A model generated the notes under the pieces. The model searched no databases. It saw nothing but the letters and a program-made list of their open reading frames with translations, and was not told the origin of the DNA. Of a stretch of DNA of 64,000 nucleotides, positions 18,659 to 29,888 are shown piece by piece; the stretch's first letter is position 1; the number at the start of each line of letters is the position of its first letter. This stretch comes from Sulfuriferula sp. (lineage in GTDB: Bacteria > Pseudomonadota > Gammaproteobacteria > Burkholderiales > Sulfuriferulaceae): positions 320 through 64,319 of the forward strand of contig JABFSE010000016.1 of the NCBI GenBank assembly GCA_013140765.1, in the 5' to 3' direction. Made by a program: the position numbers and the translations under genes.

Positions 18659-19900
18659 ATGAGCTACCAACATATACACCTGCCGACTACTGGCGAAAAA
18701 ATCACTGTTAATGCGGATGGCACACTCAACGTGCCTGACCAGCCCATTATCCCATTTGTTGAAGGCGATGGCACAGGTGCTGATATTACACCCGTCATGT
18801 GCAAAGTAGTTGATGCCGCTATCAACAAAGCCTATCAAGGCAAACGCAAAATCGCCTGGATGGAAATTTATGCAGGCGAAAAAGCGACTAAAGTCTATGG
18901 CAACGACAGCTGGCTACCTGAGGAAACCTTAACCGCCATGCGTGACTATGTGGTGTCTATTAAAGGACCACTCACCACCCCCACATCAGGCGGCATACGC
19001 TCACTCAACGTTGCCATGCGTCAAAATCTGGACTTGTATATTTGCTTGCGCCCAGTACGTTATTTTGCAGGCGTGCCTAGCCCAGTCAAAACGCCAGAAA
19101 AAGTGGATATGGTGATATTCCGTGAAAACACTGAAGACATCTACGCGGGCATAGAATGGCCAGCTGGCTCACCTGAAGCCCAAAAAGTGATTAAATTTTT
19201 GCAAGAAGAAATGGGCGTTACCAAAATCCGTTTCCCTGACACCTCCGCGATTGGTATCAAACCCGTTTCCATCGAAGGTAGCGAACGCTTAATCCGCAAA
19301 GCCATACAATACGCGATAGACCACAACCGTCGCTCAGTTACACTAGTGCACAAAGGCAATATCATGAAATTCACCGAAGGTGGTTTCAAAAAATGGGGCT
19401 ATGAATTAGCGCAACGCGAATTCGGCGCAGTAGAAATAGACGGCGGCCCTTGGTGTAAGCTTCCTAACGGCATCGTCATCAAAGACGTGATTGCAGATGC
19501 TTTTTTACAACAAATTCTATTAAAGCCTGCTGATTACGATGTCGTCGCTACGCTGAACTTGAATGGCGATTACATTTCTGACGCGCTCGCGGCAGAAGTC
19601 GGCGGCATTGGTATTGCACCAGGTGCTAATTTATCCGACAGCGTTGCTATTTTTGAAGCCACGCATGGCACAGGTCCCGATATTGCAGGCAAAGACCTTG
19701 CCAACCCATTAGCGGCTATTTTATCGGCCGACATGATGTTACGTCACATAGGCTGGGACGAAGCGGCAGATTTAATCGTGGCAGCCATGCAAACAGCCAT
19801 TACCAATAAAACCGTGACCGCTGATTTCGTGCGCTTGATGGAAGGTGCGACCGCATTGTCCTGCTCGGCATTTGGCGACAAAATGATAGAGAATATGTAA
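18659..19900 (+). CDS. icd: Dimeric (E. coli-type) isocitrate dehydrogenase, predicted NAD+-preferring
   Basis: [44 protein letters not shown]. Cofactor loop reads HGTGPDIAG. Confidence 0.97.
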
Positions 19901-19905
19901 TTTTG

Positions 19906-19941
19906 TGTTGCCCTAGCTAATATCAGATTACTAGGGCGACA
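19906..19941. terminator. Hairpin between convergent icd and the CarH-like gene
   Basis: TGTTGCCCTAG...CTAGGGCGACA stem. Confidence 0.6.
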
Positions 19942-19946
19942 TCACC

Positions 19947-20825
19947 TCATTTATCTCTCCACGCTTCAAGCGTAATAGCCAACTCAGTAAACGCACGAAT
20001 AGCTTTAATGCCTACGGGTAACTTAGTACGCGGCACACCCTGCCCTCCTACCCAAATATGAACAGACTCTGGCAATAGGTTGCGTAACTCAGTTAAGCTC
20101 TGTAAGAGCTGATTTTTAGGATAAGCCGCACTACACGATAAACATAAAATATCTGCCTGATGCGCCCTTACCGCAGCGTTGATTTCAACAACAGGGGTTT
20201 GTGCGCCTAAATTCACACAGCTCACCTGATTCAGTGCCAACAATGCCTCGCACATCAACCCGCCTAATGTATGCTCTTCACCAGGCAACGTCGTCAACAA
20301 CACGCTAGGTGCAACTACTTCAAAACCCATCTGACTAATCGCCGATCTTAGCAACGATATAACTTGCTCAGAATAAGCATGCTCCTCAAAAATAGCCAAA
20401 CGACCACGCATCCAAGCATCACCTATCTGCGTATTCATATTAGCAAGACTTTCTGTCACGAAACGCGCCAAACCCTGTTCGATAAGTAAGTTATTAAGGT
20501 AACGATGCAGATCAGCAGTGTGATGCTTTTTCAAAATAGCGATAATTTCAGCATCATTTTCAATACTGACATCTTGGACATTTAGCATCAATGATAAAGC
20601 ACTCATATCCAACGCCATCAACTTACCAGGTCTATGTCCTTGATTCATTAGCCGCTGTACCAGACGTAGCTTCTCCAACTCCATTTGTGAATATAAACGC
20701 TCGCCATGCACATCACGTATGGGTGTTGGAAAGCCGTAGCGACGCTCCCACACGCGCAAAGTGTCCTTACCAACACCCGTATCACGCTCAACGGCGGCTA
20801 TATTAAAGTATGTGTTTTTTTCCAT
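19947..20825 (-). CDS. MerR-HTH plus cobalamin-binding regulator (CarH/LitR-type photoreceptor)
   Basis: LRVWERRYG HTH, W-x9-EH (WMRGRLAIFEEH), E-x-H-x2-G (EEHTLG), LSCS and VGG of the B12 Rossmann domain. Confidence 0.9.
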   Translation of the reverse strand: MEKNTYFNIAAVERDTGVGKDTLRVWERRYGFPTPIRDVHGERLYSQMELEKLRLVQRLMNQGHRPGKLMALDMSALSLMLNVQDVSIENDAEIIAILKKHHTADLHRYLNNLLIEQGLARFVTESLANMNTQIGDAWMRGRLAIFEEHAYSEQVISLLRSAISQMGFEVVAPSVLLTTLPGEEHTLGGLMCEALLALNQVSCVNLGAQTPVVEINAAVRAHQADILCLSCSAAYPKNQLLQSLTELRNLLPESVHIWVGGQGVPRTKLPVGIKAIRAFTELAITLEAWRDK

Positions 20826-20844: not shown

Positions 20845-20860
20845 TTTTGTCCTAGACAAA
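20845..20860. promoter_or_regulatory. Palindromic operator candidate, site 1
   Basis: TTTTGTCCTAGACAAA, identical to 28627-28642. Confidence 0.75.
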
Positions 20861-20862
20861 TG

Positions 20863-20891
20863 TTGACACCCGTTAATAATTAACCTATTTT
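20863..20891 (+). promoter_or_regulatory. Candidate sigma70 promoter for the gpx-led operon
   Basis: TTGACA (20863-68)-17 nt-TATTTT (20886-91). The -10 is weak. Confidence 0.5.
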
Positions 20892-20908
20892 TAACACATA
20901 CACATCAC

Positions 20909-20923
20909 TTTGACCAAGACAAA
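20909..20923. promoter_or_regulatory. Operator variant, site 2
   Basis: TTTGACCAAGACAAA, 13/15 match to the palindrome core, 2 nt before the gpx ATG. Confidence 0.55.
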
Positions 20924-20925
20924 TC

Positions 20926-21480
20926 ATGAATAGAACCCTAATTGTCGCAACACTCATCAGCGCACTCTACGCACTCCCCAGCATTGCCGCGCCCACTTGC
21001 CCAAAAATTCTCGATTACCGAGTGAATACATTGCAAGAACAAGCTATTGATTTATGTAGCTACGCTGGCAAAGTAGTCGTCGTGGTCAACACAGCCAGCT
21101 ATTGCGGCAATACCCACCAATATGCAGGCTTAGAAGCCTTATATCGCAAAGAAAAAGCGAACGGACTTGTTATTTTAGGATTTCCATCTAACGATTTTGG
21201 TGGGCAAGAGCCGGGCAGTAACAAAGAAATAGCCAAATTTTGCCGCCTGACTTATAGCGTAGCGTTTCCTATGTTTGAAAAATCAGGCGTAACCGCAAAT
21301 AACGCCAATCCGCTATTTAAGCAACTCATTACTATTACGGGACACGCGCCACGATGGAATTTCCACAAATACTTGATTAACCGCAATGGTAATACCGTAA
21401 TTTCATTTGAAAATACGGTTGAACCTAGCGATCCAGAATTTATTAAACAAATCCAAACGATGCTCGCGCAAAAACCATGA
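20926..21480 (+). CDS. Glutathione peroxidase-family protein with signal peptide
   Basis: VVNTASYCG, LGFPSNDFGGQEPG, WNFHKYLI. Confidence 0.93.
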   Translation: MNRTLIVATLISALYALPSIAAPTCPKILDYRVNTLQEQAIDLCSYAGKVVVVVNTASYCGNTHQYAGLEALYRKEKANGLVILGFPSNDFGGQEPGSNKEIAKFCRLTYSVAFPMFEKSGVTANNANPLFKQLITITGHAPRWNFHKYLINRNGNTVISFENTVEPSDPEFIKQIQTMLAQKP

Positions 21481-22739
21481 GATCGATTGCGGTCATAGGC
21501 TCAGGAATTTCAGGGTTATCTGCCGCTTGGCTATTAACGCAGAAATATCATGTGACACTGTATGAAGCAGAAAATCGCCTAGGCGGCCATAGCCATAGCG
21601 TTGATGTATGTTTAGAGGGCAAAACAGCCGCTGTCGATACAGGATTTCTAGTTTGCAACGATCGCACTTATCCTAACTTACTCAACCTATTTGCATTATT
21701 AGGCGTTCCGCTCACCGCCAGTGACATGTCGTTTAGTGTGCAAGTAAGAGACGATAGATTAGCATGGGCTGGCACATCAATCGCCACCTTGTTTGCTGAC
21801 AAACGAAATTTATTACGTCCTGCTTTTTGGCGCATGATTAACGACATTTTGCGTTTCAACCGTCATGCAAGAGCCATCTTAAACCACCCGAATAACGCCG
21901 ACAGCCTAGCCGATTTCCTACACAAAAATCATTATAGCTCAGCGTTTAGCAACTGGTATTTGCTACCCATGGCAGCGGCTATTTGGTCGTGCCCAACACA
22001 ACAAATGCTTAGTTTTCCTGCACTTTCGTTCATTCATTTTTTAGAACAACATGGCTTACTACAAATAACTAATCGTCCACAATGGCTAACTGTCACAGGT
22101 GGCTCACGTCACTATGTACAACGCATTGCCGACACTATTACACATATTTATTTGTCTGAACCTGTACAGCAAATTGAGCGCACGGATAAGGGTGTCAAAA
22201 TCACTAGCCCAATGGGGGTTCGTAATTATGACGAAGTCGTCTTAGCAACACATAGCAACCAAAGTATGGCGATGCTCTGCGACATCAGCGCAGCAGAGTC
22301 ACGCATCCTAAGCGCGATTAAATATCAGCCTAATCATGCAGTCTTGCACACCGACAGCACTATCCTCCCTGCGCAAAAAATGTGGTCAGCATGGAATTTC
22401 CATACTGCTAACGCGTCTCCTGGTGCAACCCCAGTGAGCGTCACCTACTTAATTAACCAACTACAACCACTACCTTTTGACACCCCTGTGATGGTAACGC
22501 TCAACCCTGACACACCGATTGCCGCTGACAAAATCATCCGTAGTTTTGATTATAGCCATCCTATATTTGACCAACATGCTATCGCCGCACAACATCAACT
22601 TGCGCAAATCCAAGGACAACGACACACTTGGTTTTGTGGCGCATGGACAGGTTACGGCTTTCATGAAGACGGCTTAAAATCAGGTATGGCGGTTGCGCAA
22701 GGCTTAGGTGTGTCTATTCCTTGGTTAACGCAACTATGA
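21477..22739 (+). CDS. FAD-dependent amine-oxidase-like oxidoreductase (UfaD-like fatty acid desaturase family)
   Basis: IGSGISGL, EAENRLGGHS, VDTGFLVCNDRTYPNL, WFCGAWTGYGFHEDGLKSG. Confidence 0.85.
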   Translation: MRSIAVIGSGISGLSAAWLLTQKYHVTLYEAENRLGGHSHSVDVCLEGKTAAVDTGFLVCNDRTYPNLLNLFALLGVPLTASDMSFSVQVRDDRLAWAGTSIATLFADKRNLLRPAFWRMINDILRFNRHARAILNHPNNADSLADFLHKNHYSSAFSNWYLLPMAAAIWSCPTQQMLSFPALSFIHFLEQHGLLQITNRPQWLTVTGGSRHYVQRIADTITHIYLSEPVQQIERTDKGVKITSPMGVRNYDEVVLATHSNQSMAMLCDISAAESRILSAIKYQPNHAVLHTDSTILPAQKMWSAWNFHTANASPGATPVSVTYLINQLQPLPFDTPVMVTLNPDTPIAADKIIRSFDYSHPIFDQHAIAAQHQLAQIQGQRHTWFCGAWTGYGFHEDGLKSGMAVAQGLGVSIPWLTQL

Positions 22740-23494
22740 AACCAGAAATCTGCATCGGTCATATCATGCACCGCAGGCATTTACCTGTGGTGCATCAATT
22801 CACTTATCCAACTTATTTTTTGCGCTTCGCTATTGATGATATTAGCCAACTAAAAAACCGCTGGCTATCAATAGATAGTTGGAATTTATTCAGCTTTTAT
22901 CACCGCGATCATGGTGCACGTGATGGTAGCAACCTTGCTATTTGGATACGTCAATTACTCAATGAAAATCACATCCAAAAAGCGAACGGCAAGATTATTC
23001 TACATACCTACCCTCGCATTTTAGGCTATGTATTCAATCCCGTTAGCTTTTGGTTTTGTCATGATACCGAGGGTAATGTGCGTGCAATTTTATGCGAAGT
23101 GAACAACACTTTTAACGAACATCATAGCTACTTGTTAGCGCATGAAGATGAACGTCCGATTGCTGAAAGCGACTGGTTGGCGTGCCGCAAACAATTTCAC
23201 GTATCACCCTTTTTTGCAGTTGATGGTAGCTATCAGTTTCGCTTTCGCTGGACAGGCAATCATTGTCAATTCCAAATCGATCATCACCAACACAGCAATA
23301 AACTCTTAAGCACCACGCTCTCAGGCAACAAGCAGGTATTGACAGCAAAAATACTGATGAAATTATTTTTTACACACGCCTGGATGACATTTGCCGTCAT
23401 TGCCCGCATACATTTACAAGCCTGGCAGATATGGCGCAAAGGGGTGAAATTTCATACCAAACCCACCCCACCAGATAAGGAAATAAGCCGATGA
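22736..23494 (+). CDS. DUF1365 family protein (UfaO-like)
   Basis: GHIMHRR...HQFTY, PRILGYVFNPVSFWFC, EVNNTF, KQFHVSPF, IHLQAWQIWRKG. ATG overlaps the upstream stop. Confidence 0.88.
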   Translation: MKPEICIGHIMHRRHLPVVHQFTYPTYFLRFAIDDISQLKNRWLSIDSWNLFSFYHRDHGARDGSNLAIWIRQLLNENHIQKANGKIILHTYPRILGYVFNPVSFWFCHDTEGNVRAILCEVNNTFNEHHSYLLAHEDERPIAESDWLACRKQFHVSPFFAVDGSYQFRFRWTGNHCQFQIDHHQHSNKLLSTTLSGNKQVLTAKILMKLFFTHAWMTFAVIARIHLQAWQIWRKGVKFHTKPTPPDKEISR

Positions 23495-24714
23495 GCTGCC
23501 CCACAGTGAGCAACACACCTGTAGCATTAAACACACTACCTCGACCTGCACGCATCTTCATAAAACTCTTAGCAGGTATTAAAACAGGGCATCTGACGTT
23601 ACATATGCCAGATGGCAAGCATATTGCATTTGGTGATACTCAAGATCCGCTGCACGCCAATCTGCATCTCAATGACTGGGGCGTGTGCCAAGACATACTT
23701 ACCAGTAGCGATATTGGCTTGGGCGAAAGCTACATTGCTGGACGCTGGTTTAGCAACGACATCCCCGCACTCATTAGCATTGCCATTTACAATAGGAATA
23801 GCTTGGCGCGCGTCATGCGCGGGAATTTATTGAGCCTATTGATTTACCAAATCAAACACAAACTACGCGCCAACACCAAAACGGGAAGTCGTAAAAACAT
23901 ACTCGCGCACTACGATGTAGGTAATGATTTTTATCGACTGTGGCTGGATCGCAGCATGACCTATTCATCCGCCTTATTTGCAGGCGACCGCAAACTTAGC
24001 TTAATTGACGCACAACAAGCAAAATATCAACGAATACTGACACAACTCGATTGCAAACCGTTTCAGTCAGTTCTGGAAATTGGTTGTGGCTGGGGTGGTT
24101 TTGCCGAAATAGCCGCAAATAACCATATTGTTGTGCATGGTGTCACGCTCTCACCCAGTCAACTAGCCTACGCCCAAAGCCGCACGGCACATTACCACGA
24201 GGCGGTTCGTCCCAAACTTAGTTTAACGGATTACCGTGATATACACGGGCAGTTTGATCATATTGTCTCCATAGAAATGTTTGAAGCCGTGGGGGAGCGT
24301 TATTGGTCAGATTACTTTAAGGCCATCAAACGCTTACTCCGACCTCAAGGTAGCGCAGTCGTGCAAACGATTACCATAGCAGATACGCTTTTTAGTCGCT
24401 ATCGACGTAGCACCGACTTTATTCAACAATATGTTTTCCCTGGCGGAATGCTTCCCTCCCTGTCTGTTTTCAAAACCAAGGCCGCTCAGGCTGGACTAAA
24501 AGTCATTGACGCCTATTCATTTGGACTCGACTACGCCGAAACGCTTAAACGCTGGCGAATCGAGTTCCATCAAACCTGGGAACAAGCGCAACGCCAAGGA
24601 TTTGATCAACGTTTTTATCGGCTATGGGATTTTTATCTAGCCTACTGCGAAGCGGGTTTTACGGCGGGTGCAACTAGCGTTTACCAAATAAAACTTATTC
24701 ATGCCGAAAAATAA
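23491..24714 (+). CDS. cfa: Cyclopropane-fatty-acyl-phospholipid synthase family SAM methyltransferase (UfaM-like)
   Basis: NILAHYDVGNDFY, MTYSSA, LEIGCGWGG, SIEMFEAVG, FIQQYVFPGG, WDFYLAYCEAGF. Confidence 0.88.
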   Translation: MSCPTVSNTPVALNTLPRPARIFIKLLAGIKTGHLTLHMPDGKHIAFGDTQDPLHANLHLNDWGVCQDILTSSDIGLGESYIAGRWFSNDIPALISIAIYNRNSLARVMRGNLLSLLIYQIKHKLRANTKTGSRKNILAHYDVGNDFYRLWLDRSMTYSSALFAGDRKLSLIDAQQAKYQRILTQLDCKPFQSVLEIGCGWGGFAEIAANNHIVVHGVTLSPSQLAYAQSRTAHYHEAVRPKLSLTDYRDIHGQFDHIVSIEMFEAVGERYWSDYFKAIKRLLRPQGSAVVQTITIADTLFSRYRRSTDFIQQYVFPGGMLPSLSVFKTKAAQAGLKVIDAYSFGLDYAETLKRWRIEFHQTWEQAQRQGFDQRFYRLWDFYLAYCEAGFTAGATSVYQIKLIHAEK

Positions 24715-24716
24715 TC

Positions 24717-25265
24717 ATGCCGAAAATCCTCCATTACGCCAACAACCTATTGATGATTGGTATTATTATGTTGCTACCTAGCTGCTCTAACACACCAGTC
24801 TCCGCATATCAAAATGAAACGCCCACCTTAGACTTGGCGCAATACTTTAATGGCAAAGTAGATGCTTGGGGCATGTTTCAAGACCGTTCCGGCAAAGTAA
24901 TCAAGCGTTTCCATGTTGTCATTGATGCGCACTGGCAAGGTAATGTGGGCACATTGGACGAACACTTCACCTGGTCAGACAACACCACCAGCCAACGTAT
25001 TTGGACTATCACTAAACTAGATAAACACCACTACCAAGGCACAGCCGCCGATGTAGTCGGAAACGCGCAAGGCGAGGCTTACGGTAACGCACTCCAATGG
25101 CGATATGTGCTACAGCTGCCTGTCGATGATAAAATTTACAACGTAAGCATTGACGACTGGATGTATCAGCTAGATGATTTATCGCTCATGAATCGCTCCA
25201 AAATGAGCAAATTTGGCTTTCATCTGGGCGACATCACGCTCTACTTCAAGAAACGTCCATCATGA
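24717..25265 (+). CDS. DUF3833 family lipoprotein
   Basis: Lipobox-like LLPSC, LDLAQYFNGKVDAWGMFQDRSG, AYGNALQW, DDWMY, KFGF. Confidence 0.82.
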   Translation: MPKILHYANNLLMIGIIMLLPSCSNTPVSAYQNETPTLDLAQYFNGKVDAWGMFQDRSGKVIKRFHVVIDAHWQGNVGTLDEHFTWSDNTTSQRIWTITKLDKHHYQGTAADVVGNAQGEAYGNALQWRYVLQLPVDDKIYNVSIDDWMYQLDDLSLMNRSKMSKFGFHLGDITLYFKKRPS

Positions 25266-26014
25266 GTTTGAACGCAAAAATAACCGACTGGCATGGTAAA
25301 GTCATCTGGATAACGGGCGCATCCACAGGTATAGGTGCGGCATTGGCGCGACAATTATTAAACATAGGTGCTATCGTAATTACCAGCTCACGCACAGCAA
25401 TAACGTTAACTCACGCGAATACTTACCACGTCACCTGCGACACAACTGAACTTGCCAGCCTCGCTCTCGCCACGCAAAAAATAAAATCTCAATTTGGTAC
25501 ACTTGATTTAATTATCGCCAATGCAGGCAATCATGCACCTATGCGTGCAGACGCCATTGATGCTAAATTAGCAGCCCAACTCGTTGACACTAATCTAACA
25601 GGAACAATCAACACCGTAGCCTGCGGATTAACACTATTAAAACCGACAGGCGGTATTGCTATCGTCGCCAGCGTCGCGGGCTATCGCGGACTACCGACAG
25701 GCTTAATTTACGGCGCAACCAAAGCCGCCTTAATTAACTTCACTGAAACGCTGTATTTAGATTTAGCCCCTAAAGGGCATCAAGTCTATTTAATTAACCC
25801 TGGCTTTGTCAAAACGCCGCTCACCGACAAAAATCCCTTTACCATGCCCGCACTGATTAGCCCAGACGAAGCAGCAAAAGCGATTATATTGGGAATGACG
25901 AAAGGTCAGTTTGAAATTCATTTTCCAAAACGCTTTACATGGTTTATGCAAGCACTACGCCATCTACCCTATAGTTGGTATTTCTGGTTAATTCACAAAG
26001 GAACAGGATTATGA
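25262..26014 (+). CDS. Short-chain dehydrogenase/reductase
   Basis: TGASTGIG, NAG, YGATK (YxxxK), PGFVKT. Confidence 0.9.
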   Translation: MSLNAKITDWHGKVIWITGASTGIGAALARQLLNIGAIVITSSRTAITLTHANTYHVTCDTTELASLALATQKIKSQFGTLDLIIANAGNHAPMRADAIDAKLAAQLVDTNLTGTINTVACGLTLLKPTGGIAIVASVAGYRGLPTGLIYGATKAALINFTETLYLDLAPKGHQVYLINPGFVKTPLTDKNPFTMPALISPDEAAKAIILGMTKGQFEIHFPKRFTWFMQALRHLPYSWYFWLIHKGTGL

Positions 26015-26439
26015 ATACCGAAACAATAAACAACTTGATTCATTACTATGAAAACCTTACCCCAGCCGAGGTAGAGAACATGGGCACTTATTACAGCGAC
26101 CTAAGCTATTTCCGCGACCCGTTTAATGAAGTGCACACACTCGCCGCCATACAAGCCATTTTTCGCAAAATGTATCAACAAGTTGACCAGCCCACATTCC
26201 ACATTCAGGATAAATACATGAGCGAACAGGCACTGATATTAACGTGGGACTTTTCTTTTAACTTAAAAATCCCAAGTCGCCCGAATAAACATATACACGG
26301 CTTGAGTCTATTGCGATTTGACGAATCAGGCAAAATAAACTATCACCGTGATTACTGGGATGCAGCCCAAGAACTCTATGAGCAACTACCTGGTATAGGC
26401 GGCATTTTCAGTCTAATGCGTAAAATCATCGCGCATTAA
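26011..26439 (+). CDS. NTF2/SnoaL-like protein
   Basis: YSDLSYFRDPFNEV...HRDYWD. ATG 26011 overlaps the SDR stop; AGGA RBS. Confidence 0.82.
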   Translation: MNTETINNLIHYYENLTPAEVENMGTYYSDLSYFRDPFNEVHTLAAIQAIFRKMYQQVDQPTFHIQDKYMSEQALILTWDFSFNLKIPSRPNKHIHGLSLLRFDESGKINYHRDYWDAAQELYEQLPGIGGIFSLMRKIIAH

Positions 26440-26454
26440 ACTGAGAACCGATAT

Positions 26455-26922
26455 TTAAGTTGCCTTAAACCAACTCAACAATGATTTTTGTGGCTTGTCA
26501 ACTGTAGCGGCATGTTGGATAACTTGCGCAATCTCTTGCACAAAAGCCTCAGCTTGGCTGGGTGTATAGTCATACGGCTGAAATAAACCCATTTCACTGT
26601 ACTTCGACACCAGTTCATTATTTACACCGCTAAACTTCACCTGCTCCATCGACCACGCGGGAAAAGCCCGTGCTGTTATTTCATTATAAGATGCCATCAT
26701 GCAACGACTATGGCGCTTATCCGCGAGTATCCGTAGGTAAGTTTTATTAACGGCTTTGCGTTCGCCTTCTAGGCATTGGAAAAAATGTCGATCCGAATAA
26801 ATCAACACCCCCGTTACATGTTGCGCATGATTATTAACTTTTGACGTTGCCAAAATTTGGAAAATATCGTCGTCACTTAAATCTAAATTGCTGTAACTCA
26901 CATAACTTAATCTCACTAACAT
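26455..26922 (-). CDS. Stand-alone BLUF blue-light photoreceptor
   Basis: RLSYVS (Tyr), NN, VTGVLIY, FFQCLEG (Gln), DKRH, FPAWSM (Trp/Met). ATG 26922 after AAGGA. Confidence 0.92.
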   Translation of the reverse strand: MLVRLSYVSYSNLDLSDDDIFQILATSKVNNHAQHVTGVLIYSDRHFFQCLEGERKAVNKTYLRILADKRHSRCMMASYNEITARAFPAWSMEQVKFSGVNNELVSKYSEMGLFQPYDYTPSQAEAFVQEIAQVIQHAATVDKPQKSLLSWFKAT

Positions 26923-26941
26923 TTCATTTCCTTTACAAACA

Positions 26942-28471
26942 TTACAAAAAACCAATCTTTTCACGCAGCGTTTGCGCACCATCGGTAATACGTTGTTTTT
27001 CTACCTCCGTCATTTTTTTAATGTGTTGGTAAACCATGCCTACTCGTGGGTTATGCGCAAGTAGCGTGCTATGTCTGATATGGAAATCCCAATATAACGC
27101 ATTGTATGGGCACGCCTTATCACCATGCCGTTGTGCTTTATCATAATGACAGCGACCGCAATAATCACTCATACGATGGATATACGCCGCACTCGATATA
27201 TAGGGTTTAGTCGCCAATAAGCCACCATCGGCGAACTGACTCATACCCAATGTATTTGGCAACTCTACCCATTCAAACGCATCTACATACACACCCAAAT
27301 ACCATTGATGTACTGCGACGGGTGATAAGCCACTCAATAGCGCAAAATTACCAATGACCATGAGCCGCTGTATATGGTGTGCATGGGCGTTCTGCAAACT
27401 GTCAGTCAAGGCATGATGCAGGCAAGCCATCTTCGTTTTGCCATCCCAAAACCAAGCAGGCAAATCAGCATGATGCTGAAAAAAATTGTGTTCGACATAC
27501 TGTGGCATTTTTGCCCAGTAAACACCACGCACATACTCACGCCATCCCAAAATTTGTCGAATATAGCCTTCCGCACTCGCAATACTCACCACACCTGCGC
27601 TATAGGCTAGGGCTACGCGCTCAACAACTTCTTGGGGCGTAATCATTTTTACATTAAGCGCAAAAGACAGTAACGAATGAAACAAACGTGCATGATTTTG
27701 GCTCATCGCATCCTGAAAATCTCCAAAATACGGCAAGCTATATTTAGTAAAATTATCTAACTGCACCAAGGCTTCTGCACGATTAACAGGCCAACGAAAA
27801 GCCGTCGCCTGCGGCTCACCAAACGAGCGCACCCCCGCGACAGTAATGGTGTGCCATAAAGCATCGTGATTGTGTATTGGTCGTCTGTCTAATGGCTCAA
27901 CTGGCGAGCCTGACCAGGCTTTTCGATTCGCCTTGTCATGGCTCCACATACCACCTATAGGCTTGTTTTCCTCGTCAAGCAACACACCATGAATACGCCG
28001 CATATGTTGATAAAAATCCGCCATCAACCATTTTTTGCGTTGCTTAAAAAACTGACCAACTTCATCACGCTGCGTATAAAAATGTGCGCTATCAACTTGC
28101 ACTACCTCACAACCAATTTGCTCACCTGCCCGCGCCATTTGTTCATCTAGCCGCCACTCGTCAGGTGATTGGTAGAGCAACAATTGCGCATCATGCGCTT
28201 GCACTAACATAGCTAAATTGCTGATTAGATTTTGCTGATTACGCACATCGTCAATTGCTAAATAATCAACCTCATGACCAGCCATGCGCAACTGATGAGC
28301 AAAATCACGCATCGCTGCAAAAATAGCAATAATTTTTTGCGCATGATGCAAAACATAATCCGTCTCTTGGCGCATCTCCATCATGACATATCTAATTGAC
28401 GGCGATTTCTCGTTAAACCAAGGATGTAGCGGATACAGCTGATCTCCCAGAATTAAGCGCAGTGTCGTCAT
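26942..28471 (-). CDS. Fe-S bacterial cryptochrome / (6-4) photolyase family (PhrB/CryB type)
   Basis: [32 protein letters not shown] and four Cys (MAC, YCGRC, ACP) fitting a 4Fe-4S cluster. Confidence 0.9.
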
Positions 28472-28614
28472 ATTGTTTGGCGAGGCTTAGCATGGCGGCA
28501 GCGTGTTGAACAGTACTTCACCTCGTCCCACGCGCGCGCCCACTTTTTACGCCAGGTAAAAGGCAATCCGCAACTAAGGCAGGTTTTTGTTGGTAGCGGT
28601 CGTGATTTTGTCAT
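28468..28614 (-). CDS. DUF2256 family small Cys-rich protein, 48 aa (absent from ORF track)
   Basis: Manual translation [48 protein letters not shown]. Its stop overlaps the photolyase ATG. Confidence 0.9.
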
Positions 28615-28626
28615 TTAACCATGCAA

Positions 28627-28643
28627 TTTTGTCCTAGACAAAA
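28627..28643. promoter_or_regulatory. Palindromic operator candidate, site 3
   Basis: TTTTGTC-CTA-GACAAAA, with 16 bp identical to site 1. Confidence 0.78.
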
Positions 28644-28695: not shown

Positions 28696-29436
28696 ATGCC
28701 AAAAATTGCGTTAGTTACAGGGGCAACAGGCGGATTAGGTCAAGCTATCGCACACCAACTAAATGACGAAGATTGGTTGCTAGTGGTCACAAGCCGAGAT
28801 CAAGAAAAATTAACACAAACGTATGGCACCCAACACCTGCAAATTGTCGCAGACTGCTCAACCTATCAAGGTGCGCGCGATATTTTTGAAGCCACACGAG
28901 CCGCAGGACTCACACCCACCGCATTAGCACATTGCGTCGGCAACGTCAGACTGGGCGCGTTACATAGAATGTCAGAAAAGGACTTTAATGAATGCCTCAG
29001 CGCAAATCTAATCAGCGCGTTTCACACACTGGCGGCGTTTATCGGGCAATTACGCGAAGCCGATACACCAGGTTCGGCGGTATTAGTTTCATCCGCCGCT
29101 GCCCGCATCGGCACACCCAATCATGAAGCAGTTTCAGCCGCAAAAGCAGGCTTAGAAGGGCTGGTGCGTGGCAGTGCGGCAACGGCTGCGACCGCTGGCA
29201 TCCGTGTCAATGCAGTCGCACCTGGCATCATGGATAGCCCCGCCGCAAACAAGGTGCTGGCAAGTGCCAATGCGCGAATTGCCGCAGCCAACCAATATCC
29301 ACTCCCAGGCATAGGCAATACTAAAGAAGTGGCCGATTTGATGTGCTGGCTATTATCAGAAAACGCTGCCCGCGTCACAGGACAAACGTGGGCGATTGAT
29401 GCAGGTTTTTCAGTTATCAGACCACTTGTGAGGTAA
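28696..29436 (+). CDS. Atypical SDR-family oxidoreductase
   Basis: TGATGGLG, VSSAAA, PNHEAVSAAK (no catalytic Tyr), RVNAVAPG, VTGQ. Confidence 0.85.
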   Translation: MPKIALVTGATGGLGQAIAHQLNDEDWLLVVTSRDQEKLTQTYGTQHLQIVADCSTYQGARDIFEATRAAGLTPTALAHCVGNVRLGALHRMSEKDFNECLSANLISAFHTLAAFIGQLREADTPGSAVLVSSAAARIGTPNHEAVSAAKAGLEGLVRGSAATAATAGIRVNAVAPGIMDSPAANKVLASANARIAAANQYPLPGIGNTKEVADLMCWLLSENAARVTGQTWAIDAGFSVIRPLVR

Positions 29437-29441
29437 ACGCA

Positions 29442-29888
29442 ATGAGCGCACAAAATACAGCACCCACAGCCGTCAAATGGCTCAGTTATGGCGGGCTTAT
29501 TCCATTCATCGTACTAGCAACTGCGATAACGCTAAGTCATTATCATCATGCTATATTGGGTTATGCTTTAATGACTTATAGCGTCAGCATTTTGAGTTTT
29601 GTCGGTGCGTTACATTGGGGGTTTGCGATGAATACGCACACGCTTACGCCACTACAACGGAATTTATTATATACATGGAGCACAATACCTGCACTAATTG
29701 CCTGGCTTGCCACATTGTTACCGTTACACCTAGGGTTGATTTTATTACTGAGCACATTTCCAGTGCAATTCTGGCAAGACAAACTACTGAATGCGCATAT
29801 AGCACTCCCTGACTGGTACTTACACTTACGCCTGAGACTAACACTGATTGCCAGTTTGGCTCTATTTATTGCTACGCTAAAACTGTAA
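29442..29888 (+). CDS. DUF3429 family membrane protein
   Basis: LSYGGLIPF, YSVSILSFVGALHWG, PDWYLHLRLRLT. Confidence 0.8.
   Translation: MSAQNTAPTAVKWLSYGGLIPFIVLATAITLSHYHHAILGYALMTYSVSILSFVGALHWGFAMNTHTLTPLQRNLLYTWSTIPALIAWLATLLPLHLGLILLLSTFPVQFWQDKLLNAHIALPDWYLHLRLRLTLIASLALFIATLKL

Follow-up and report, generated by a model that had tools for sequence, protein, structure and literature searches.

A CarH-type MerR regulator next to lipid-modification and photolyase-like genes in Sulfuriferula: a predicted vitamin B12-dependent light repressor

To our knowledge, no photoreceptors but those of the CarH type use vitamin B12; they have found wide application as green-light tools, and all the characterised members that we know of control carotenoid genes. 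A stretch of 64,000 nucleotides of Sulfuriferula sp. DNA (contig JABFSE010000016.1, positions 320 to 64,319; hereafter the window, with position 1 as its first letter) carries a gene for a 292-residue MerR-family regulator, here called P0001. The locus raises two questions: is P0001 a light-responsive repressor dependent on adenosylcobalamin (AdoCbl), and which genes would light then release? By sequence, motif spacing and predicted fold, P0001 is of the CarH or class I LitR type. We consider it probable that it acts in the dark as an AdoCbl-dependent repressor of its own gene and of three adjacent transcription units, and that light inactivates it; its output would most likely be genes for membrane-lipid protection, a peroxidase and photolyase-type genes, rather than carotenoid genes.

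The regulator, its cofactor motifs and its relatives

The features of the gene are as follows.

19947-20825, minus strand: carH/litR-type gene (P0001), 292 residues, from the open reading frame (ORF), Pfam, phmmer, AlphaFold2 and Foldseek
20634-20804, minus strand: MerR-type DNA-binding domain, residues 8-64 (Pfam PF13411 MerR_1, E 9e-12)
20379-20414, minus strand: W138-x9-E148-H149 motif carried by the four-helix bundle, in register with Thermus W131/E141/H142
20037-20306, minus strand: Rossmann B12-binding module, residues 174-263 (PF02310)

The ORF has no internal stops, and its translation reads as a MerR winged-helix head, a linker, a bundle of four helices and a B12-binding Rossmann module. 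An earlier note on this DNA had claimed that the gene encodes RxWERRY, W-x9-EH and E-x-H-x2-G...SxS...GG, and every one of these is present in the translation: besides the W-x9-EH motif listed above, there is R24-V-W-E-R-R-Y30 in the recognition helix (nucleotides 20736-20756), E183-E-H185-T-L-G188 (20262-20279), in which His185 is the predicted lower axial cobalamin ligand, S230-C-S232 (20130-20138) and G260-G261 (20043-20048). CarH homologues are defined by two signature motifs, and assignments to the group number several hundred across bacterial taxa (PMC8156234). The spacing read from the sequence, ExHx2G-x41-SxS-x27-GG, fits the published Rossmann pattern (D/ExHx2G/P-x41-SxT/V-x22-27-GG; PMC9304148, PMC8156234) except for a Ser where the pattern has Thr or Val. 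The SignatureFinder signature for light-responsive cobalamin-binding domains (GxxW / EH / GxxH / GxxxP), found in 1561 sequences in a database screen (PMC11796333), is also complete in P0001, as G135-D-A-W138, E148-H149, G182-E-E-H185 and G207-A-Q-T-P211.

Comparison with profiles and structures points the same way. The best NCBIfam match is NF052513 (TransRegCarH; 122.5 bits), and in a phmmer search of PDB sequences residues 5-264 align to full-length Thermus CarH (3whp/5c8d; E 3e-27), with Thermus W131, E141, H142 and H177 in register and the segment from H177 to G199 ungapped; the DNA-binding domain entry 2jml is matched as well (E 3e-10). The Thermus residue equivalences used throughout come from this alignment, which has about 28% identity and no gaps in the key segment. 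A model computed with AlphaFold2 from the homologue alignment (mean predicted local distance difference test score, pLDDT, 89.1) comprises a winged-helix head, a bundle of four long helices and a Rossmann module of five strands; the linker (residues 84-90) is poorly ordered, and the helices that carry the Wx9EH motif (119-139 and 145-165) have pLDDT above 80. Foldseek's top 50 PDB chains for this model all belong to Thermus CarH (E 1.4e-17 over the full length). The modelled cobalamin-binding domain superposes on that of Thermus CarH with a target template-modelling (TM) score of 0.83-0.84 and a root-mean-square deviation (rmsd) of 2.5-2.8 Å, for example on 5c8a_A and 9s0h_B (both target TM 0.83, rmsd 2.5 Å).

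Database proteins that match P0001 at E <= 1e-10 number at least 6950; among those with a name, the nearest is from Sulfuriferula nivalis (61% identity). In an alignment of 48 homologues with 45-82% identity (mean column identity 51%), G135, W138, E148, H149, E183, H185, G188, G207, P211, S230, G260 and G261 are invariant, as are R24, W26, E27, R29 and Y30 of the DNA-binding head; the third position of the SxT/V motif is Ser in 47 of the 48, and G182 is kept in 32. A further sample of 80 betaproteobacterial loci was drawn from species genomes of Burkholderiales, Rhodocyclales, Nitrosomonadales, Gallionellaceae and others: RxWERRY is present in all of them, and all three motifs are complete in 79, always with the x27 spacing. 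Relatives occur in more than 590 species genomes, and isolates that carry the locus include Noviherbaspirillum soli, Aromatoleum diolicum, Rubrivivax gelatinosus, Polaromonas and Dechloromonas. In an even sample of 300 genomes from the same GTDB class, 13 contain a match at E <= 1e-20; the family is common but patchy in distribution. The Pfam matches, the phmmer register and the invariance among homologues together argue that the W/E/H, E-x-H, SxS and GG motifs are not there by chance, and the invariance of the Trp motif and of the Rossmann B12 module across the clade argues for selection on cofactor binding.

The motifs that the earlier note took to define CarH are thus borne out in sequence, in spacing and in predicted fold. 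Its statement that the regulator keeps every motif holds for all the AdoCbl-binding motifs, but not for the semi-conserved His that follows the Trp, which is Met139 here; this His is neither a CarH-defining nor an AdoCbl-binding motif.

The genome (2.18 Mb, 100% complete, 40 contigs) also appears able to supply the cofactor. Only two of its proteins have a B12-binding domain: P0001 and a MetH-sized ORF. Its single cobalamin riboswitch (119.6 bits; contig C19, 16174-16357) is followed, up to about 28729, by genes for a BtuB TonB receptor, a 186-residue membrane protein, an adenosyltransferase, cobB, cbiB and cobD, with cobQ and cobU a few kilobases beyond cobD. The adenosyltransferase is of the CobA/CobO corrinoid type (256 bits against a cut-off of 185). 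From the riboswitch-linked btuB, adenosyltransferase and late cob genes we conclude that the cell is equipped to take up or salvage corrinoids and to convert them to the adenosyl form; AdoCbl is the form that CarH proteins need. The cob genes on this contig look like a late-pathway or salvage set and not a de novo one, early cob/cbi genes not having been searched for.

Candidate operators and predicted targets

The candidate operators and the transcription units beside them are listed below; the operators are given without strand.

20846-20860: O1, candidate operator, TTTGTCCTAGACAAA, 12/12 palindrome (repeat family, promoter scan)
20909-20923: O2, candidate operator, TTTGACCAAGACAAA, 11/12, 63 bp from O1
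28628-28642: O3, candidate operator identical to O1, in a second divergent control region
20926-26439, plus strand: predicted target operon 1 (Pfam; divergent synteny with the regulator in relatives)
26455-28614, minus strand: predicted target operon 2 (Pfam PF04244 and PF04940; small ORF)
28468-28614, minus strand: ORF of 48 residues in operon 2, putatively DUF2256-like (small ORF)
26942-28471, minus strand: DPRP-family photolyase-related protein in operon 2, iron-sulphur (Fe-S) photolyase-like (Pfam)
26455-26982, minus strand: short BLUF protein in operon 2, 175 residues, no effector domain (Pfam)
28696-29888, plus strand: predicted target operon 3, with an SDR gene (28696-29436) and a membrane-protein gene (29442-29888), from ORFs

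Scored as TTTGTC-N3-GACAAA with a maximum of 12, the palindrome reaches at least 11/12 at only three places in the window, namely O1 (12), O2 (11) and O3 (12); the 16-mer TTTTGTCCTAGACAAA is identical at 20845 and 28627, with an 81%-identical copy at 20908. The whole genome holds four exact copies of the core TTGTC-N3-GACAA: at O1, at O3 and at two intragenic positions (a ribosomal-protein operon contains one of them and a sensor gene the other), which were considered as extra regulon members and judged to be chance. Of 79 related loci, 70 have a palindrome scoring at least 10/12 within the 300 nucleotides upstream of the regulator; among 1448 control windows taken from these loci, 12 reach that score (0.8%). 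Paired palindromes recur in many of the related loci at a spacing of 63-64 or 74 bp, about six or seven helical turns, and the difference of about one turn between the two classes suggests a constraint on helical phase.

The palindromes lie close to promoter-like sites. O1 abuts the -35 hexamer TTGACA (20863-20868) of a rightward TTGACA-17-TATTTT site and itself contains a -35-like TAGACA, and O2 lies between that rightward site and the start codon (20926) of the glutathione peroxidase gene (gpx). O3 overlaps promoter-like hexamers on both strands, 14 nucleotides upstream of the start of the 48-residue ORF; a TAGACA-17-CATAAT site whose first hexamer lies within O3 faces the SDR operon. The promoter-like spacers in the carH-gpx and O3 regions are of normal length (16-18 bp), and the predicted layout fits repression by promoter occlusion together with autoregulation, not the spacer remodelling of classical MerR proteins.

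Operon 1 encodes, by Pfam, the glutathione peroxidase, a flavin amine-oxidase-type protein, a DUF1365 protein, a methylase resembling cyclopropane fatty acid (CFA) synthase (CMAS), a DUF3833 protein, an SDR and a SnoaL-like protein. These families recur divergently from the regulator among the 80 related loci: amine oxidase (AmOx) in 61, DUF1365 in 60, CMAS in 58, SDR in 49, DUF3833 in 46, SnoaL in 41 and glutathione peroxidase in 35. The loci in which the AmOx, DUF1365 and CMAS genes do not lie divergently upstream of the regulator are mostly short contigs. By domain assignment, the AmOx, DUF1365 and CMAS proteins belong to the same families as UfaD, UfaO and UfaM, which form the bacterial furan-fatty-acid pathway (PMC7380195). 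The CMAS and DUF3833 genes are adjacent in the window (24714/24717) and about 2.3 kb apart in most related loci, a gap which implies that the relatives carry one or two genes lacking here.

The earlier note had also predicted an output of lipid modification and DNA repair, and both halves find support: the former in the divergent AmOx/DUF1365/CMAS operon (61 of 80 loci), the latter in the identical palindrome at the photolyase-like/BLUF operon. The proposed link to DNA repair rests on the operator shared in this genome, the DPRP gene being within 10 kb of the regulator in only 9 of the 80 loci and a BLUF gene in three. The BLUF gene stands together with the DPRP gene behind the palindrome, an arrangement that, if the prediction is true, would place a flavin blue-light sensor under a B12 light sensor.

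Carotenoid genes, in turn, are probably missing. The only SQS_PSY genes in the genome are one adjacent pair (270 and 277 residues; contig C6, 147044-149972), followed by a gene for a 435-residue amine-oxidase-type protein, and from their order we read the three as an hpnC-hpnD-hpnE-like squalene cluster; since this is the sole SQS_PSY cluster, carotenoid synthesis is probably absent.

At its other end the regulator gene converges with an isocitrate-dehydrogenase-like gene (18659-19900) across a gap of 46 nucleotides that reaches to the regulator's stop codon. An inverted repeat in this gap, GCCCTAG...CTAGGGC (19903-19940), is probably a shared terminator hairpin.

A proposed dark repressor and its rivals

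We infer cobalamin binding, light sensitivity, repression and oligomeric state of P0001 by homology with the CarH proteins of Thermus, Myxococcus and Bacillus. In the dark, P0001 would bind AdoCbl, with His185 as the lower axial ligand and W138, E148 and H149 capping the adenosyl group, as their counterparts do in Thermus CarH, and this binding would drive head-to-tail oligomerisation. The oligomer would sit on the TTTGTC-N3-GACAAA palindromes that overlap or flank promoters and would block RNA polymerase at its own gene, at the gpx-lipid operon, at the operon of the DUF2256-like, photolyase-like and BLUF genes, and at the SDR operon; the spacing of 63 bp between the in-phase O1 and O2 points to two dimers, or a single tetramer, on either side of the promoter. 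Light from the near-UV to the green would break the Co-C bond, the oligomer would dissociate or lose its affinity for DNA, and the genes would be expressed.

Several observations weigh against this proposal. The PF02310 match is marginal (33.3 bits against a cut-off of 32.1), PF02607 was not detected in P0001 by Pfam though it is detected in most homologues, and the NF052513 score is far below the 400-bit cut-off, which places P0001 outside that narrow equivalog group. The searchable literature yielded no experiment on P0001 or on other proteins of its clade. In a two-hybrid assay, some CarH homologues of Cystobacter whose motifs are intact showed self-interaction that was independent of B12 and light (PMC9304148); the motifs by themselves are no guarantee of every CarH behaviour. 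The aligned sequence also lacks the His at the position of Thermus His132, a residue needed for efficient light-driven disassembly in Thermus CarH; it has lost the salt bridge of the Thermus dimer, and of the two glycines at the interface only one is kept; and the candidate operators are palindromes unlike the known tandem-repeat operators of CarH.

The last three points call for closer comparison. In the bis-His light state of Thermus CarH, His132 serves as the upper ligand, and its loss leaves most of the protein tetrameric after illumination (PMC10442372). The equivalent position 139 in the 48 homologues is Met in 31, Leu in 12 and Ser in five, never His, and among 128 clade members it is again never His (M, L, S, E, V, I, A, R and T are seen). 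With Met139 there, P0001 would have no bis-His light state; the residue at this position also varies among known members (PMC11796333). At the dimer interface, Thermus Arg176 and Asp201, part of the head-to-tail dimer network, correspond to Glu184 and Gln209, and across the 48-homologue alignment the two positions hold Glu, Gln or Lys with Gln or Glu. Gly192, at the dimer-dimer interface, corresponds to Gln200 (nucleotides 20226-20228); this position is Gly in 46 of the 48 homologues and Gln in P0001 and one other. The substitution G192Q makes Thermus CarH predominantly dimeric instead of tetrameric (PMC8221060), so Gln200 may favour a dimer and the dark-state oligomer of P0001 is uncertain. 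Natural dimeric CarH proteins occur in Cystobacter, others being tetramers (PMC9304148), and a dimeric P0001 would therefore fall within the known plasticity of the family. As to DNA, the CarH operators that have been mapped consist of 11-bp direct repeats in tandem (PMC9304148), three of them in the Thermus operator, whereas the candidates here are 15-bp palindromes in in-phase pairs.

Could the same locus be explained without B12 photochemistry? One explanation would make P0001 a B12-independent repressor resembling CarA or the class II/III LitR proteins, with light sensed by a partner such as the short BLUF protein. A LOV partner inactivates class II LitR in Pseudomonas mendocina (PMC9758184), the effector-less BLUF protein is encoded 5.6 kb away behind an operator identical to O1, and the absence of His132 would suit such a repressor. 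CarA, the B12-independent paralogue of the Cystobacterineae, keeps the B12 motif and the EH but has lost the Trp of Wx9EH and its flanks (PMC9304148), and class II LitR keeps only the four-helix-bundle domain, its C-terminal region being unrelated to the Rossmann B12 domain (PMC9758184); here the Trp, with the full x9 spacing, and the PF02310 Rossmann module, with His185, are both intact and invariant in the clade, and both identities were ruled out for P0001. A BLUF gene so rarely near the regulator (three of 80 loci) cannot be the general light input of the clade, and BLUF as an obligatory partner was likewise rejected for the clade. We regard this explanation as improbable.

We think it a little less probable still that P0001 senses cobalamin itself, or uses B12 in a structural or redox role, photolysis having no physiological part. 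The B12-binding module and the riboswitch-controlled corrinoid import or salvage of the host speak for a cobalamin sensor. Against it, the B12 genes of this genome are controlled by that riboswitch at another locus, the predicted regulon is made up of photo-oxidative-stress and photolyase-family genes, none of them related to B12, and the Wx9EH cap is specific to light-responsive cobalamin-binding domains and absent from those of the MetH type (PMC8156234, PMC11796333). Very unlikely, in our judgement, is a classical MerR activator that remains bound to its site and remodels an over-long spacer upon a signal such as oxidative stress: the MerR-family head and the palindromic sites are shared with such proteins (PMC8156234), but the palindromes share bases with the -35 hexamer, border it or sit downstream of the start, not within a spacer of 19-20 bp, and the model has a CarH-type cobalamin-binding domain after the head in place of the MerR coiled coil with its metal or drug pocket. 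With these sites outside spacers of 16-18 bp and this C-terminal fold, P0001 was set aside as a classical activator.

Returning to the AdoCbl-dependent light-inactivated repressor, we tentatively raise, as a possibility somewhat doubtful at present, that the clade is a distinct subtype of AdoCbl photoreceptor, with no bis-His state, with paired in-phase palindromes (63 or 74 bp) and with a non-carotenoid regulon responding to light and B12. In this genus the protein may be a natural dimer through the Gln at the Gly192 position, and the paired palindromes would bracket a bidirectional promoter, possibly with looping. The regulon would comprise a furan- or cyclopropane-type fatty-acid pathway and a peroxidase, and here also the Fe-S photolyase-like and BLUF genes, all controlled by green light and B12. 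Such a subtype would give a non-pigmented bacterium a B12-gated regulon against photo-oxidative stress.

What would be new is modest: a regulator of the B12 type (class I-like) that synteny and the candidate operator link to a non-carotenoid gene set in Betaproteobacteria and, equally modest, its predicted palindromic paired operators and its lack of His132. No description of a betaproteobacterial B12-type LitR controlling these genes was found in the literature searched, which is not proof of absence. If the proposal is true, P0001 and several hundred betaproteobacterial relatives with the same gene neighbourhood would extend the output of B12 photoreception to membrane-lipid protection and peroxide defence in bacteria that probably have no carotenoids, and in this genome also to photolyase-family and BLUF genes. 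The output is not new in kind, since B12-independent LitR classes put such genes under light control (PMC9758184, PMC5241685), and with the same gene set already light-controlled by these relatives current understanding would not be overturned. The clade does offer natural variants (no His132, an altered oligomer interface, palindromic operators) with which to study the fixation of the light signal and the recognition of DNA.

Comparison with known light-responsive regulators

Thermus thermophilus CarH (LitR; 5C8A/5C8D/5C8E/5C8F and 3WHP), a class I LitR, is the solved structure closest to P0001 by sequence and by fold. The two have the three-part architecture in common, and RxWERRY, Wx9EH, ExHxxG...SxX...GG and GxxxP are present in both and in register; Thermus His132 is Met139 in P0001. 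Repression in the dark that depends on AdoCbl, and release by light, are expected of P0001 as of Thermus CarH. The targets differ, being carotenoid genes in Thermus and, by prediction, the peroxidase/lipid-modification and photolyase-like/BLUF operons here. The half-site of the palindrome also contains TnnACA, the core of the consensus for the CarH repeats.

The CarH proteins of Myxococcus xanthus, of other myxobacteria and of Bacillus megaterium are defined by the same pair of motifs as P0001 and are often autoregulated from divergent promoters, a likeness to the present locus; they differ from it in their direct-repeat operators and in controlling carotenogenesis. Many of them have the His after the Trp and the acid-Arg pair, both of which the P0001 clade lacks. 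A parallel at the position of His132 is offered by CtMerR (8JBS/8JBT) and other proteins picked out by the SignatureFinder signature, which have the light-responsive domain, the GxxW/EH/GxxH/GxxxP signature and, as in P0001, a residue other than His there. CtMerR has Arg at that position and stabilises its light state with a Glu-water contact, not by bis-His ligation (PMC11796333), and it is likely a precedent for the photochemistry of P0001. It differs in having Arg where P0001 has Met, and in the phmmer search it was matched over the cobalamin-binding domain only (E 1.6e-4).

A parallel in output lies among regulators that work without B12. The class II LitR proteins found in Pseudomonas putida and P. 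mendocina, and the MerR-like VCA0056 of Vibrio cholerae (the Vibrio LitRs are assigned to class IV) have a DNA-binding head of the same family as P0001, and the genes induced by light in these Pseudomonas and Vibrio systems encode photolyase or cryptochrome, enzymes of the CFA or furan-fatty-acid-synthase type and the regulators themselves (PMC9758184, PMC5241685). These proteins have no functional B12 module and receive light through LOV partners or otherwise, whereas P0001 keeps the whole predicted AdoCbl site.

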